64,000 nucleotides of DNA, from NCBI GenBank assembly GCA_025993795.1, contig JAMQHL010000034.1, positions 9,291 to 73,290 of the forward strand, read 5' to 3'. The DNA comes from Planctomycetota bacterium (GTDB lineage: Bacteria > Planctomycetota > UBA8742 > UBA2392). Under the pieces are notes generated by a model that saw nothing but the letters and a program-made list of their open reading frames with translations, was not told the origin of the DNA and made no database searches. The position numbers were made by a program, and so were the translations under genes. Shown in pieces: positions 16,783-58,049 of the stretch (position 1 is its first letter; the number at the start of each line of letters is the position of its first letter).

Positions 16783-18069
16783 ATGGGTGAATCCATCCGG
16801 CTGGACATCACGAACCTGACCGCCGACAAAGTGGGCGAGCACGGTATTTCTGCGGCGGACGTTCTGGCGCTGGACGGGCGTGTGGCGGAGTTGCGCACCG
16901 TGGTTGAGCAAGAGCGCGGCGAGGGGGCGCACTACTACCTGGCGTCAGCGGCAGCCGCCAGCGAACTTGAGTCAGTGCTGCGCATCGCACAGCCGCGCAT
17001 GGGCCGCTTCGGGCACCTTGTTCTGCTTGGCATCGGCGGCAGCGCGCTTGGCCTGAAAATGCTGGCGCAGGCGCTGGCATATCTTGACACGTCAATGCCT
17101 GAGCTGCATGTGGTGGACAATACAGACCCCGCGCTGCTGGCGCGCGTGCTGGCGCGCATTGAGCTGAAGCAGACGCTGTTTGTGGCGGTCAGCAAGTCCG
17201 GCGGCACGCTGGAGACCGTGGTTGCGCTGGGCCACGTGGTCAGGTTGCTGCAGCACGCAGGGCTGGAGCTTTCTGACCACGTGCTGACGGTGACCGACCC
17301 GGAACAGGGCCCGCTGCGCGAGTTCACGCGACGCCACAACCTGGAAAGCGCGGACATCCACGCGGCGATCGGCGGGCGCTTCTCGGTGCTTACGCCGGCT
17401 GGCACGCTGCCCGCTGCGCTGCTGAACCTTGACGTGGCGTCGCTGCTGCACGGCGCTGACCGTATGGCCGGCGTATGCGCCAATGGTGAGCCCGCGAAGT
17501 TGTGGCCCGCGCGCCTTGGTGTGCTGGCCGCCGACCTGTGCCTCAAGCACGGCAAGACCGGCATTGTGTTCATGCCTTACAGTTCGCGGCTTGAGTACTT
17601 GTCAGACTGGTTCGTGCAACTGTGGGACGAGAGCCTTGGCAAGGACGGCAAGGGCCAGACTGCAATCCGGGCCGTCGGCGCGACGGACCAGCACGCACAA
17701 CTGCAACTGTTCATGGACGGCCCGAACGACAAGCTGCTGGTGTTCGTGCGAATCGAGAAACATGTGCCGGACGTGGCAATCGGCGACTTCGAGTGGGACC
17801 TGTTCGGGTGCCCATACGTCAAGGGCCGCACGTTGGGTCAGGTGATCAACGCCCAGCAGGCGGGCACGGCCGATGCGGCAACTGCGCGGGGGCGACCCAA
17901 CGCCACGCTGGTGCTGCCGCGCTTGAGCGCGGAGACAGTCGGTGAGCTGGTGATGGGCTTGATGGCAGCAACCACGTACGCATCCAAGGTACTGGGCGTA
18001 AACGCCTACGATCAACCGTCCGTCGAGCTTGGCAAGCGGATCAGCCGGCAGATGCTGGGCGGTCCCTAG
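16783..18069 (+). CDS. pgi: Glucose-6-phosphate isomerase
   Basis: LGIGGSALG, SKSGGTLET, GGRFSVLT, QLWDESLGK, TDQHAQLQ, DQPSVELGK; start may be 16765. Confidence 0.95.
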   Translation: MGESIRLDITNLTADKVGEHGISAADVLALDGRVAELRTVVEQERGEGAHYYLASAAAASELESVLRIAQPRMGRFGHLVLLGIGGSALGLKMLAQALAYLDTSMPELHVVDNTDPALLARVLARIELKQTLFVAVSKSGGTLETVVALGHVVRLLQHAGLELSDHVLTVTDPEQGPLREFTRRHNLESADIHAAIGGRFSVLTPAGTLPAALLNLDVASLLHGADRMAGVCANGEPAKLWPARLGVLAADLCLKHGKTGIVFMPYSSRLEYLSDWFVQLWDESLGKDGKGQTAIRAVGATDQHAQLQLFMDGPNDKLLVFVRIEKHVPDVAIGDFEWDLFGCPYVKGRTLGQVINAQQAGTADAATARGRPNATLVLPRLSAETVGELVMGLMAATTYASKVLGVNAYDQPSVELGKRISRQMLGGP

Positions 18070-19222: not shown

Positions 19223-19251
19223 TTGACACGTCAAGTTCGTTGCGATAGCCT
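19223..19251 (+). promoter_or_regulatory. Sigma70-type promoter
   Basis: TTGACA-N17-TAGCCT; predicted TSS ~19258 at the start of the riboswitch. Confidence 0.75.
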
Positions 19252-19255
19252 GATT

Positions 19256-19388
19256 GCATCGCCGAGTTTTGCCCTGCGTGGGGCGAAAGCGGGGGACCCA
19301 GGATCCTTGGGGCTAATCGCAACAGCGTAGGGCCAATCTTCTTCGGCCCGAGCCCGTCAGCTAACCCCGCAGGCGTTGAAGAGGAGGC
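19256..19388 (+). ncRNA. c-di-AMP (ydaO/yuaA) riboswitch
   Basis: Conserved tracts ATCGC..GCGGGGGACCCA..TTGGGG.TAATC..GTAGGG..CCCGAGCCCGTCAGCTAACCCCGCAGGCGT; stems GCCC/GGGC, CCCA/TGGG, GGGCC/GGCCC; lies upstream of K+ transporter. Confidence 0.92.
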
Positions 19389-19390
19389 TG

Positions 19391-21304
19391 TTGCCGGCAT
19401 CCTCATTTGTCTGGCCGCGCGGACACTGCCCGCCGGTTTGGGCGGCGTGCAGGCTGAGGTCATCGTTGGGCGACACCAGGCTGATCCATCGAATTCTGAC
19501 CGACGAACGGGTCGAGAAATGGCGTGCGCGCTGCTTCTGGGTCAACGCGCCGATAGCGCTGCTGGCACTTGCCAGCTTTCTGCTGTTCCACGGTGAGGTG
19601 TTCCCGCAGCGCTGGGAGTCGTTCATCGCGCTGTTCCAGGCGCTGTGCCTGATTGCACTGATCGGCGAGACCGTGGGCGTCTTTGTCCTGGCGCGCAACC
19701 TGAAGGAGGGCTGGCGGCAGGCCCCCGGCGACACGATGGCGCTGCTGGTCGGCGCCCTGATGGGGCTCGGGTTGTTCGTTGTTTCGCCCTGGGGCGCAGC
19801 CTACCTGGACGAACCCACCACGCTCACGGCATTCGCCTACCTGACCCAGGCGGGATTGCTGTCTTTTGTAATGGTGCGGCTGCTGCGCCTGGTCAGCTTC
19901 GTGACGCGCCTGGTGCAAAGCCCTCTGCACGTGTTTCTCGGCAGCTTCGCCGGGCTGATTCTCATCGGCGCCGGCCTGCTGATGCTGCCAGGTGCCCATG
20001 CGCCGGAGCAGGAAGTTACGTTTCTTGACGCGTTCTTTACCGCCACGTCGGCTACATGCGTGACCGGTTTGACAGTGCTGGATACGGGCACGGCTTGGAC
20101 GCGCTTTGGTCAGCTGGTGATCATCACGCTGGTGCAGATGGGCGGTCTGGGCATCATGACGTTCGCTGCCTTCTTCGGCCTCGCGTTTGGGCGCGGCATG
20201 GGCGTCAAGGGTGCCGCCGCCGTTGGGGAAGTGATGAATCTTGACCTGATCGGGCGCGTCGGGCGGGTCACGGTCTGGATTCTGGGTACCACGCTGGTGT
20301 GCGAGGGCCTTGGTGTGTTCCTGCTTTACGGCCACTGGGTAGACGCGGCAGGCAACGTGCTGCCGGCAGGCGAGCAGCTCTACTATTCGATGTTTCACAG
20401 CATCAGCGCGTTCTGCAACGCGGGGTTTTCTCTCTACTCGGACAGCATGGTGCGCTATGTCGGGCACTGGCCGGTCGTGTTGAGCATCTCATGGCTTGTC
20501 GTCATGGGCGGCCTTGGCTTTACCGCGATCATGGAGGTAACGACATTCCGGTTCTGGGCGCACCCGTGGGCACGCCGTGTTTCGTTCATCAAGCGCAGAG
20601 TGAAGGGCCAGCCGATCCCGCGACTGAGCCTGCAGTCAAAGATCATCCTGACCATGACCGCGGCCCTGCTGCTGATCGGCACGGCCGGCATGCTGGTCTT
20701 TGAATGGAACTACACGCTCAGGGAACTGGATTGGGACGACAAGCTGGCGGCTGCGCTGTTCCAGTCGATGGCGGCGCGCACTGCCGGGTTCAACAGCGTG
20801 GATACTCCGTCAACCAGCACTGCCACGCAGTTCTGGACGATCCTGCTGATGATTGTCGGCGGCAGCCCGGGCAGCGTGGCCGGCGGCATCAAGACCACAA
20901 CGTTTTTCGTAATGATCCTGTCGGTGGCGGCTACGTTTACCGGACGCCCCACAGAAGCATTCCGCCGCCGAATCCCTGAGTCGCTGATCCGCAAGTCGCT
21001 GGTCATGCTGGTGCTGGCCATGGTGTTCATTTCCGCCGCCACGCTGGCGCTGTGCGTCACCGAAGCCGACCACATGGCGGGGGACTATTACGGTTTTGAG
21101 CATGTTCTGTTCGAAGCCTCCAGCGCATTCTGTACCGTGGGCCTCAGCAGCGGCATGAGCAGCGAGTTGACCCCTGCCGGGCGGATCATCATCATCGCGT
21201 GCATGTACATCGGGCGAATCGGGCCGCTGACGCTGGTGCTGGCGATCGGCCGCCGGGCACAGCGCAGGTTTGAGTATCCTGAAGAGAACATCATGATCGG
21301 CTGA
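19391..21304 (+). CDS. Ktr/Trk potassium uptake membrane subunit (KtrB/TrkH family) with N-terminal membrane extension
   Basis: Four filter motifs ATCVTGL, AFCNAGF, ARTAGFN, AFCTVGL; GGSPGSVAGGIKTTT; start codon uncertain. Confidence 0.92.
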   Translation: MPASSFVWPRGHCPPVWAACRLRSSLGDTRLIHRILTDERVEKWRARCFWVNAPIALLALASFLLFHGEVFPQRWESFIALFQALCLIALIGETVGVFVLARNLKEGWRQAPGDTMALLVGALMGLGLFVVSPWGAAYLDEPTTLTAFAYLTQAGLLSFVMVRLLRLVSFVTRLVQSPLHVFLGSFAGLILIGAGLLMLPGAHAPEQEVTFLDAFFTATSATCVTGLTVLDTGTAWTRFGQLVIITLVQMGGLGIMTFAAFFGLAFGRGMGVKGAAAVGEVMNLDLIGRVGRVTVWILGTTLVCEGLGVFLLYGHWVDAAGNVLPAGEQLYYSMFHSISAFCNAGFSLYSDSMVRYVGHWPVVLSISWLVVMGGLGFTAIMEVTTFRFWAHPWARRVSFIKRRVKGQPIPRLSLQSKIILTMTAALLLIGTAGMLVFEWNYTLRELDWDDKLAAALFQSMAARTAGFNSVDTPSTSTATQFWTILLMIVGGSPGSVAGGIKTTTFFVMILSVAATFTGRPTEAFRRRIPESLIRKSLVMLVLAMVFISAATLALCVTEADHMAGDYYGFEHVLFEASSAFCTVGLSSGMSSELTPAGRIIIIACMYIGRIGPLTLVLAIGRRAQRRFEYPEENIMIG

Positions 21305-21330
21305 AGCAAAGCCGGCAGAAAGAGGGTTCA

Positions 21331-21987
21331 GTGCAGAAAGTTGCCATCATCGGTCTGGGTCGTTTCGGCATGGCGCTGGCAGAGGCGCTGGCCAAGGATG
21401 GCCTTGAGGTCATCGCCATCGACACGGTGCCCGCAGTGGTGGACCAGATCAAGGACAAGGTCGCGCTTGCAGTGACCGCCGACGCCCGGGAACTCGAGAC
21501 CCTGCGCTCGCTGGGGCTCGGAAAAGTCGACACCGTGGTGGTCGCCATCGGCGAGAACTTCGAGGCCACGCAGCTTGCGATGCTGGCAGCGCGTGACCTG
21601 GACTATCCCCGCGTGATTGCGCGCGCCAACGACCGCATCAAGGCCACGATTCTGCGCCGCCTTGGCGCTGACGAAGTCATCATGCCCGAAGAACAGGCAG
21701 CCCTGAAGCTGGCGCAGAAACTTGCAAAGCCGGGCCTGCTTGAGGCAGTCGAGATCGGCACCGAGCACAGCTTCGTACAGGTCAAGGCGCCGCGCGCCGT
21801 GATTGGAAAGACGCTGCTTGAGCTAAACCTGCGCAAGACTTTCAGCGTGAACCTGGTTGCGATCAGCAGCGCGGACGGCAACAACATCAGCATCCCCGGC
21901 CCGGACACAACGCCCGGCGAAAACGACGTGCTGATGATCGTGGGCAAGGACAAAGACATCGACCGGTTCATGCGCGAAACCGAGTAG
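21331..21987 (+). CDS. Ktr/Trk regulatory subunit (KtrA/TrkA family, RCK_N + RCK_C)
   Basis: IGLGRFG nucleotide-binding motif, VIMPEEQAA, C-terminal LNLRKTFSVNLVAI. Confidence 0.93.
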   Translation: MQKVAIIGLGRFGMALAEALAKDGLEVIAIDTVPAVVDQIKDKVALAVTADARELETLRSLGLGKVDTVVVAIGENFEATQLAMLAARDLDYPRVIARANDRIKATILRRLGADEVIMPEEQAALKLAQKLAKPGLLEAVEIGTEHSFVQVKAPRAVIGKTLLELNLRKTFSVNLVAISSADGNNISIPGPDTTPGENDVLMIVGKDKDIDRFMRETE

Positions 21988-22130
21988 TGGACGCAGGCGC
22001 TCGATGTGCCGCACCATCCGCAGGTTGTTGAACTTTGACCCGCCCGCGACAGACACCGAAGTCGAAGCTGAGAAGGCGCGCGCAAGCGCTTCTCCGCCCC
22101 CGCCCGGCAAGCGTAAATGGGTGAATGCGC

Positions 22131-56301: not shown

Positions 56302-57921
56302 TTACTGGGTCAGGATTCTTTCGCGGCGCTTGGCGAGTTCCTGGCGGTACTTCTCGCGGGCATCCAGCGCGGCCTTGCGTTTGTCCTTGTCCGGGTCATC
56401 GGGGTACTTCACGCGATGGTGGTACATGCTGGCCAGGCTCTTTGCCAGCGAGTCTTCGACAACTTTCCACTCCGCGATCGTGATGTGGCACTCATCAAAC
56501 TGGCCATCGAGCAGCTTGTCGATGATCGCAGTGTGGACCATGGTCCGGATATCTTCCGGATGTGTCACGCCGCCCGCGAAGCGGCTTCGTGCCGTGGCCT
56601 CCACCTGGTCGGCGATGGCGGCAATGGCGCTTTCCTTGCGCTGGGGCTTGGGACCGGGGTAGCGAAACTGCCCGGCCTCGATTGTTTCGCCCTCGCGCAT
56701 CTGTTCTTTGGCTTTGTAGTAGAAGTACTTGATGACGCTGGTGCCGTGGTGGCCGGTGATAAAGTCTTCAAGAATCGGTGGCAGCTTGGCCTTGCGCGCC
56801 ATCAGCACGCCGTCGCTGACGTGGCTCAAAATGACCAGCGCCGACATCATCGGGCTGAGCCTGTCGTGCAGCAGCTTTGACTCGGGCTCGTTTTCAGTGA
56901 AGTACTCGGGTCGCACCATCTTTCCCAGGTCGTGAAACTTGATGCCGACTTCACCCAGCAGCGCATTGGCGCCGATGGCCTGGCACGCCCGCTTGGTAAA
57001 GTTGGCGACGTTCTGCGTGTGCTGCCAGGTGCCCGGCGCGCGCTGCTGCATCAGCGTGATCAGCGGGTGCTCGCCTTCCAGCAGTTCAATCAGGCGCAGG
57101 TCGGTAGTGATGCTGAACACGCGCTCAAACACCGGCAGCAGAAACGTGCTGAACACGCCGACTGCGGCGCCGATCACCAGTGCGCCGGCGGCCCAGAACA
57201 AGAGCCGAACCCAGGTGAACTCGCCCGCTGTTGACCAAACGCGCTCAACGCCGATCAGCCACAGCGCCACCACAATCAGCGCCGCCGCAACTCCGCCAGC
57301 CACACCCACCAGCGCCAGCTTGTAGCGCGATCGCAGGTTGCGCGTGAACAGCACGGCAGTCAGCGCGCCGGCCAGGGCAACCGTCAATGGAATCGGCTGG
57401 AACTCGTCGGCAGAAATCAGAACCACGGCATTGGCCAGCGTAGTGAACAACAGGGCGTCGATGGCAAAACGCTGGTCGAAGACCACGGCATAGGCGATGC
57501 CGCACAGCAGCAGCACGCCAAAAAGCACGCCCGGCGTAACCGCCGACTGAAGCATTTCGGGCGCACGTTCGGCCCCGATGACCGCAACTGCCTGGGTGAT
57601 CGCCGCGCTGAGCAGAACGCTGGACGCATAGAACATCTGCTTTCGGCGCTCGCCGAACAGCTCGACCCGGAAGCGCGAAAGATAGAAGCCATACAACGCC
57701 ACAAACCCGATGACGAGCATTGCCTGGCCGGCGATGCGGGCGGGATTCAGGTTGTCGTAGGGGGCAAGAATCACGCCGATCATGAGCAGCGTGAACGTGG
57801 CTGCACCGACTACGCGGGGCGTCCAGATCGCCCAGTCGATAGCCGTCTGCGAGCGCTCGTGCTCGCCGAGGCGTTGCTCAATGAGATCGAGTTTGCGCTC
57901 TTCCAGGTCGGAAAACGCCAT
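56302..57921 (-). CDS. 7TM-HD (HDIG) family metal-dependent phosphohydrolase, PgpH-like
   Basis: Multiple TMs, then APGTWQH, FHDLGK..PEYFTEN, HHGTS, FRYPGPKPQ, IADQVEA. Confidence 0.88.
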   Translation of the reverse strand: MAFSDLEERKLDLIEQRLGEHERSQTAIDWAIWTPRVVGAATFTLLMIGVILAPYDNLNPARIAGQAMLVIGFVALYGFYLSRFRVELFGERRKQMFYASSVLLSAAITQAVAVIGAERAPEMLQSAVTPGVLFGVLLLCGIAYAVVFDQRFAIDALLFTTLANAVVLISADEFQPIPLTVALAGALTAVLFTRNLRSRYKLALVGVAGGVAAALIVVALWLIGVERVWSTAGEFTWVRLLFWAAGALVIGAAVGVFSTFLLPVFERVFSITTDLRLIELLEGEHPLITLMQQRAPGTWQHTQNVANFTKRACQAIGANALLGEVGIKFHDLGKMVRPEYFTENEPESKLLHDRLSPMMSALVILSHVSDGVLMARKAKLPPILEDFITGHHGTSVIKYFYYKAKEQMREGETIEAGQFRYPGPKPQRKESAIAAIADQVEATARSRFAGGVTHPEDIRTMVHTAIIDKLLDGQFDECHITIAEWKVVEDSLAKSLASMYHHRVKYPDDPDKDKRKAALDAREKYRQELAKRRERILTQ

Positions 57922-58049
57922 GCGTTCTTCCGTGATTACCCACCAAGGGGCACCCCGCAAGTATAGCAAAGAAGGTGCGACGTCTAGGTGCTAGTCGGTG
58001 GCCCGGTTAGTGCGCGCTAGAAGTTGCGTCGCAGGCACCGGCGCGATGG

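Follow-up and report, generated by a model that had tools for sequence, protein, structure and literature searches.

The founding members of the cyclic di-adenosine monophosphate (c-di-AMP) riboswitch class, Rfam RF00379, are the ydaO (kimA) and yuaA (ktrAB) leaders of Bacillus subtilis; yuaA controls Ktr K+ uptake, and the expected logic is that high c-di-AMP results in less K+ import. The Bacillus members carry an intrinsic terminator. The rpfA riboswitch of Streptomyces coelicolor has no canonical terminator and yielded terminated transcripts with c-di-AMP in vitro, and for the nlpC (cg2402) riboswitch of Corynebacterium glutamicum, equally devoid of a canonical terminator, a translational effect has been reported; the accompanying scheme, so far only proposed, is that a GGAG lying upstream pairs with CTCC in the ligand-free RNA and that, with ligand, CTCC blocks the GGAG of the ribosome-binding site (RBS) (PMC9960051). 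Here, we describe a member of this class that precedes the K+ transporter genes ktrB and ktrA in an uncultured planctomycete, known from a metagenome-assembled genome (MAG) of 3.29 Mb in 75 contigs (genome G000; ~85% complete, 62% GC). The analysed stretch, hereafter the window, comprises 64 kb (contig C25:9291-73290); coordinates refer to the window, and features lie on its forward strand unless stated otherwise. Judged by its sequence, the ktrBA leader is an ordinary copy of the known class and precedes the archetypal target genes. With it, the range of a textbook riboswitch for a second messenger, together with that of its classic partner, comes to include Planctomycetota; this pairing is not mentioned for the phylum in the literature searched, and no established concept is altered.

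The aptamer occupies positions 19250-19390, where the RF00379 covariance model is matched over its entire length (model positions 1-134 of 134) with 86.0 bits (E 1.2e-18), against a gathering score of 38 bits. It is the single match across the 3.29-Mb genome and lies in a 5' leader, between a promoter and ktrB, in a genome that also carries cdaA and a PgpH-type hydrolase gene. An initial annotation of this DNA had proposed a ydaO-class c-di-AMP riboswitch ahead of ktrB-ktrA, an assignment that is borne out by the full-length match to the Rfam ydaO-yuaA model and by the TrkH, TrkA_N and TrkA_C matches of the two proteins; most of the elements that it listed (promoter, aptamer, GAGGAGG, ktrB-ktrA) were recovered where it had placed them. 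Like the B. subtilis founders, the window copy displays the conserved blocks and the loop-to-tail pseudoknot. Helix P1 is formed by CGCC (19260-19263) and GGCG (19372-19375), and the class-defining pseudoknot is represented by an 8-bp complementarity between the hairpin loop UCUUCUUC (19337-19344), located upstream of the GAGCCCGUCAGCUAACC block, and the 3' tail GAAGAGGA (19378-19385). The latter strand overlaps the sequence GAGGAGG (19381-19387) at the 3' edge of the RF00379 match. In the crystallised Thermoanaerobacter tengcongensis RNA (4QLM), the 3' end reads ...GCGUCCGAAGGAGAA and the tail pseudoknots with the loop CUCCUUC (PMC5393176); GAGGAGG aligns with its GAAGGAG, and the window pair is homologous to CUCCUUC/GAAGGAG.

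The two strands are conserved and co-vary. In an alignment of 18 related copies (A1), the pseudoknot cells are paired in 93.6% of cases, compared with 56-83% when the partner is slid, and two of the pairs are altered on both sides. Across 28 planctomycete copies, loop and tail vary yet remain complementary, giving rise to such pairs as CUCUUC/GGAGAG, CUUCUUCG/CGAAGGAG and CAUUCUCUUC/GAAGAGGAUG, with two-sided changes in G022 (CUUCUC/GAGGAG) and in G233 (UCCG/CGGA by script, UCCGG/CCGGA by eye). Because positions 19378-19385 form this conserved, co-varying pseudoknot of the class, GAGGAGG is an integral strand of the aptamer rather than the Shine-Dalgarno (SD) sequence of ktrB, the role that the initial annotation had assigned to it.

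The true SD of ktrB lies further downstream, in the region UGAGG (19455-19459; GAGG at 19456-19459), 6 nt upstream of TTG 19466. This TTG is the true start codon, rather than TTG 19376, which is the first TTG of the open reading frame (ORF) and falls within the aptamer tail, because the homologs start directly before the D-T-R-L-I motif and the upstream frame is not conserved: homologous proteins begin with M-x-(D/E)-T-(R/K)-L-I, with a GTG or TTG codon directly 5' of the motif. The leader thus delimited counts 76 nt between the end of the RF00379 match and the start codon. It is highly improbable that GAGGAGG is nevertheless the SD, serving TTG 19391 or TTG 19376 and being hidden directly by the folding of the aptamer or pseudoknot. 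TTG 19391 is indeed in frame, 3 nt 3' of GAGGAGG, and a direct SD-in-pseudoknot design exists in another planctomycete, G168, but the 25-30 codons 5' of 'DTRLI' are not conserved, and stop codons in the upstream frame of ktrB in G015, G021 and G012 preclude a start in the aptamer tail, near which G001 has no start codon at all. Furthermore, G004 and G002 carry the same tail before a different gene, the ATG of which is 95-98 nt downstream, and every relative has an SD of its own (GGGGG, GGAGG or GAGG) 5-7 nt upstream of the conserved start codon.

The part of the leader downstream of the aptamer offers the 3' strand of the pseudoknot an alternative partner. In the minimum free energy (MFE) structure, GAGGAGGC (19381-19388) and GCAUCCUC (19397-19404) form a hairpin (19381-19404; 9 bp, one mismatch, -12.8 kcal/mol) directly followed by AUUUG. 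Because 4-5 nt are common to the hairpin and the pseudoknot, only one of the two can form at a time. An equivalent imperfect helix of 8-10 bp is present in all 18 family relatives (-9.8 to -16 kcal/mol); GAGG and CCUC (19401-19404) are invariant columns of alignment A1, the distal arms vary between copies (GCC/GGC, UGA/UCA, GGCC/GGCC), and in the 18 family copies cognate arms pair more stably than swapped ones (-13.06 vs -12.10 kcal/mol, permutation p = 0.034). When the ligand-bound state was mimicked by excluding the pseudoknot strand from pairing during folding of the leader, CCUCA (19401-19405), the proposed anti-SD, paired with UGAGG (19455-19459) in the MFE structure, bases flanking this helix paired with the region of TTG 19466, and the unpaired probability of the SD dropped from 0.39 to 0.03. 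Averaged over 26 copies, which are not phylogenetically independent, the unpaired probability decreased from 0.31 to 0.14 (Wilcoxon p = 6e-6). In a terminator scan, no canonical terminator was listed for the interval from the aptamer to the start codon, in agreement with the lack of an obvious U-tract terminator noted initially and unlike the situation in the Bacillus members; AUUUGUCU alone follows the mismatched hairpin.

Taken together, these predictions suggest that the ktrBA leader is probably a translational OFF switch operating through CCUCA/SD pairing. The purine strand GAAGAGGAGGC (19378-19388) would alternate between two partners that exclude each other. In the c-di-AMP-bound RNA, it would pseudoknot with the loop at 19337-19344, the freed CCUCA would pair with the SD, and initiation of ktrB translation would be blocked; in the ligand-free RNA, the same strand, being an SD look-alike, would capture CCUC in the 19381-19404 hairpin, leaving the SD open and the gene on. 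The ligand response, the OFF polarity and the action at the level of translation are all inferred, the polarity from the class and from the logic of the platform. Accordingly, of the translational, SD-sequestering control suggested in the initial annotation, the mode of control is retained as the likeliest one, with an SD other than GAGGAGG. The arrangement of GGAG, CTCC and RBS-type elements resembles that of C. glutamicum nlpC, as does the lack of a canonical terminator, but the target there is a cell-wall peptidase rather than a K+ transporter, and in the window the anti-SD and the SD are separated by 50 nt with two hairpins between them. S. coelicolor rpfA is similar in its high-GC host and in having no canonical terminator, and differs in its target gene.

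Several observations weigh against this model. The invariance of CCUC is forced by its pairing with the invariant GAGG and does not by itself prove an anti-SD role, and CCUC would be able to pair with any SD. In the window, CCUCA and UGAGG form a helix of just 5 bp, which closes a 50-nt insert; the MFE of the platform is not unusual compared with shuffled sequences (z = -0.5); and blocking the tail leaves the predicted SD accessibility unchanged in G008, G012, G016, G007b and G014. Pair counting on a MAFFT alignment detected no covariation signal in the hairpin, because none of the four proximal pairs varies and the register of the distal arms differs between copies. The model also has no need of the U-rich run that follows the hairpin (3.8 U in 8 nt vs 1.5 expected), which may be a complement of the purine strand or a loop relic. 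Finally, in family f61 (L084-L086, L092), the tail of the aptamer folds into the hairpin GGGCG...CGCCC, which has the conserved loop CAAUCGUUC and a short U run behind it, and the regulated APC-permease genes begin ~200 nt further downstream; this platform is not anti-SD-like and does not fit the scheme.

Alternatively, ligand binding could turn expression off at the level of transcription or RNA stability, be it by premature termination at a non-canonical site, by Rho-dependent termination in the untranslated leader or by leader cleavage. Termination is the mode of action of the B. subtilis members and is compatible with the behaviour of the S. coelicolor one; the 76-nt leader and the conserved U-rich run 3' of the hairpin point in the same direction, and SD sequestration would itself expose the RNA to Rho, so that both modes could be coupled. 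However, the ligand-bound leader can form no hairpin with an adjoining U-tract within 19386-19480, and the sole U-rich run follows a hairpin that requires the pseudoknot strand. On balance, control of this kind appears rather unlikely, yet it deserves more credence than an inverted switch, in which the 19381-19404 hairpin and AUUUGUCU would act as a weak intrinsic terminator in the ligand-free RNA only. In that very improbable case, c-di-AMP would turn expression on. In its favour, 5 of the 8 nt behind the hairpin are U, an enrichment that is conserved, and the tail hairpin of family f61, different in sequence, also precedes a U run. Nevertheless, all tested members of the class are OFF switches, and c-di-AMP acts as a repressor of K+ uptake; the run of U is interrupted, short and absent from G008 and G007a; similar U-rich stretches constitute the loops of sequestor hairpins in compact translational designs; and the design in G168 is unambiguously of the OFF type. 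Were the inverted polarity true, it would be opposite to that of every studied class member, and there is only a slim chance that c-di-AMP switches on a KtrB variant whose extra N-terminal membrane domain goes along with a transport role perhaps unlike classical K+ import.

The class is patchy yet widespread in Planctomycetota: RF00379 was found in 38 of the 301 sampled genomes of the phylum (13%), representing 29 of 238 genera, and in 16 of the 23 genomes of the window's family. The first 40 relatives, with 16/23 positive genomes inside the family and 0/18 outside, had suggested a family-restricted riboswitch, which the 301-genome sample rejected. The rarity outside Firmicutes and Actinobacteria implied by the initial annotation was likewise overstated, given these counts and the presence of a DAC domain in 39 of 41 relatives. 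The translational OFF switch that we favour is supported by other families, in which compact triplets of tail, anti-SD and SD occur (G105, G109, G283, G154, G233, G218, G248); for instance, the layout in G105 is tail GGGGAACCUC ... GAGGCUCCUC ... AGGAGG-N6-AUG, and in G233 the tail GGAGGGGCC imitates the SD-bearing arm of a sequestor of 9 bp. In G168 (L080, G168:C12), the 3' strand of the pseudoknot, GAGGAG, doubles as the SD of a kimA-like gene, the AUG of which follows after 7 nt, so that this leader is predicted to be a direct SD-in-pseudoknot translational design, that is, the mechanism which the initial annotation had envisaged, albeit in another genome. We lean slightly towards the view that the pseudoknot strand has evolved into a decoy of the SD and serves as a general translational platform across Planctomycetota. 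The SD within the pseudoknot, the compact decoy/anti-SD/SD triplets and the expanded version in the window form a clean natural series of platforms, on which the translational mechanism, to date only a proposal for Corynebacterium, could be tested.

The first regulated gene differs even between close relatives. The long ktrB comes first in G000, G001 and genus g4, is preceded by a short ktrB of 446 aa in G004 and G002, and by kup in G008; tblastn searches for kup, kimA and a short ktrB found none in the window's assembly. Loss of the short ktrB from the window, with G004 and G002 of the same genus representing the original state, was considered and set aside: the window leader aligns with that of G001, which shares the direct arrangement, and insertion of the short ktrB in G004/G002 is at least as likely as its loss from the window. 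Elsewhere in the phylum, the aptamer precedes genes for KimA homologs (E 1e-58 to 6S3K) and further APC permeases, a gene for a methyltransferase, and genes for members of an unknown family of proteins. The methyltransferase, which is SAM (S-adenosylmethionine)-dependent (Methyltransf_23), follows the second riboswitch of G006 (L018, G006:C18) and may be involved in compatible-solute synthesis. The unknown family comprises membrane-anchored proteins of at least 300-360 aa encoded behind the riboswitch in G051 (L087), G125b (L096) and G298a (L084) and characterised by the motifs YVPN..VGIVEKLWS and GYVFARDG; the G051 protein, the sole member scanned, had no Pfam match, and the family looks like an uncharacterised component of the c-di-AMP regulon.

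The genome also encodes predicted enzymes of c-di-AMP turnover. A cdaA gene is located on contig C38 (L002), 3' of folP; its 281-aa ORF encodes N-terminal membrane helices and a DAC domain (136.8 bits) with the sequences HDGAIIV and GTRHRAG, which contain the DGA and RHR motifs. The DAC-domain cyclase that the initial annotation had suggested looking for is therefore present. A candidate c-di-AMP phosphodiesterase of the PgpH type (7TM-7TMR_HD and HD domains) is encoded within the window on the reverse strand (56302-57969), outside the operon and ~35 kb from the riboswitch. As regards the active c-di-AMP signalling put forward in the initial annotation, genes for both a cyclase and a candidate hydrolase are thus in place. 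The next gene (426 aa; L002 1956-3236), which overlaps cdaA at its end, had no Pfam match and was for this reason not called cdaR, although cdaR usually occupies this position.

The window unit differs from B. subtilis ktrAB in the gene order, ktrB-ktrA, and in its host, a high-GC diderm planctomycete. The long ktrB (19466-21304) encodes a protein of 612 aa with a Pfam TrkH match of 181 bits (scored on the ORF 19376-21304). Residues 154-611 match B. subtilis KtrB (8K1S; E 2.4e-71), and the translation contains the pore-loop motifs VTGL, NAGF, TAGF and TVGLS, which carry the conserved pore-loop glycines of the KtrB/TrkH proteins. The TIGR00933 (NCBIfam) score of 303.4 bits is under the curated cut-off of 331, and the protein is a divergent member of the subfamily that bears an additional domain at its N-terminus. 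This extension of ~150 aa (window 19466-19925, residues 1 to ~153), which distinguishes it from B. subtilis KtrB, is predicted to be membrane-embedded and to contain long helices, is absent from the solved KtrB structures and is kept in the long KtrB homologs of planctomycetes; an Arg-rich helix, VRLLRLVSFVTRLV, immediately precedes the KtrB core. An AlphaFold2 (AF2) model of the extension (predicted local distance difference test score, pLDDT, 80; predicted template modelling score, pTM, 0.70) produced no match with E < 0.6 and no template modelling score (TM-score) above 0.44 in a fold search against the PDB. A role of the extension as a voltage sensor is not supported; voltage-gated channels appeared only among the non-significant fold matches.

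The second gene, ktrA (21331-21987), is preceded by the SD AGAGGG (21321-21326) and encodes a 218-aa protein with RCK_N and RCK_C domains (Pfam TrkA_N 100 bits, TrkA_C 42 bits). Its RCK_N domain contains the nucleotide-site motif GLGRFG, which conforms to GxGxxG, and the protein matches both KtrA and KtrC of B. subtilis with E ~1e-35 (2.9e-35 for KtrA). Both partners of the B. subtilis KtrAB complex (4J7C, 8K1S) have counterparts in the window, where KtrB differs by its extension. The RCK_C domain aligns over its full length with that of Staphylococcus aureus KtrA in complex with c-di-AMP (4XTT; E 1.8e-10), but the AIKRGKE stretch of the latter, the arginine of which we take to be a c-di-AMP contact, is replaced by AISSADG.

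The promoter of the unit (19223-19251), correctly described as TTGACA-N17-TAGCCT in the initial annotation, consists of the -35 box TTGACA (19223-19228), a 17-nt spacer and the -10 box TAGCCT (19246-19251), and is predicted to be of the sigma-70 type. In the 64 kb of the window, there is a single instance of TTGACA-N17-TAnnnT, where 0.08 would be expected. Among the 18 related copies of alignment A1, TTGAC is nearly invariant and the T-(A/G)-n-n-n-T box stands, free of gaps, at a fixed distance from helix P1. Because both boxes hold their spacing to P1, transcription would start 1-4 nt upstream of it, and the start can reasonably be placed at ~19256-19259, immediately 5' of P1. A generic promoter scan did not report this promoter, as TAGCCT fits just 3 of 6 positions.

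The -35 box sits within the palindrome TTGACACGTCAA (19223-19234), and the underlying motif, TTGACnnGTCAA, recurs in the window at ~17084-17095. With 97 copies in genome G000 vs ~1.4 expected from base composition, TTGACnnGTCAA is the most frequent 5-2-5 palindrome of this genome. The enrichment is confined to the 2-nt spacing, other spacings being represented by at most 11 copies, and the flanks are biased as well, T being avoided directly 5' and A directly 3' of the motif. Since the motif is genome-wide and shows no intergenic enrichment (81% of the sites lie within crude ORFs vs a crude coding fraction of 85%), a K+-specific operator at TTGACACGTCAA was ruled out; TTGACnnGTCAA could be recognised by a DNA-binding protein that acts globally, or be linked to uptake or repair.

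The nearest relatives of KtrB, at 93% identity, are encoded by the Planctomycetota MAGs JADJRK01 and JADZFR01, consistent with the probable planctomycete host named in the initial annotation. The unit consists of the riboswitch, ktrB and ktrA; the gene downstream of ktrA is convergent, and the operon therefore ends at ktrA. Between ktrA and this convergent gene, which encodes a lipoprotein, lies a GC-rich hairpin without a U-tract, GAGAAGGCGCGCGCAAGCGCUUCUC (22069-22094), which may serve as a bidirectional terminator.

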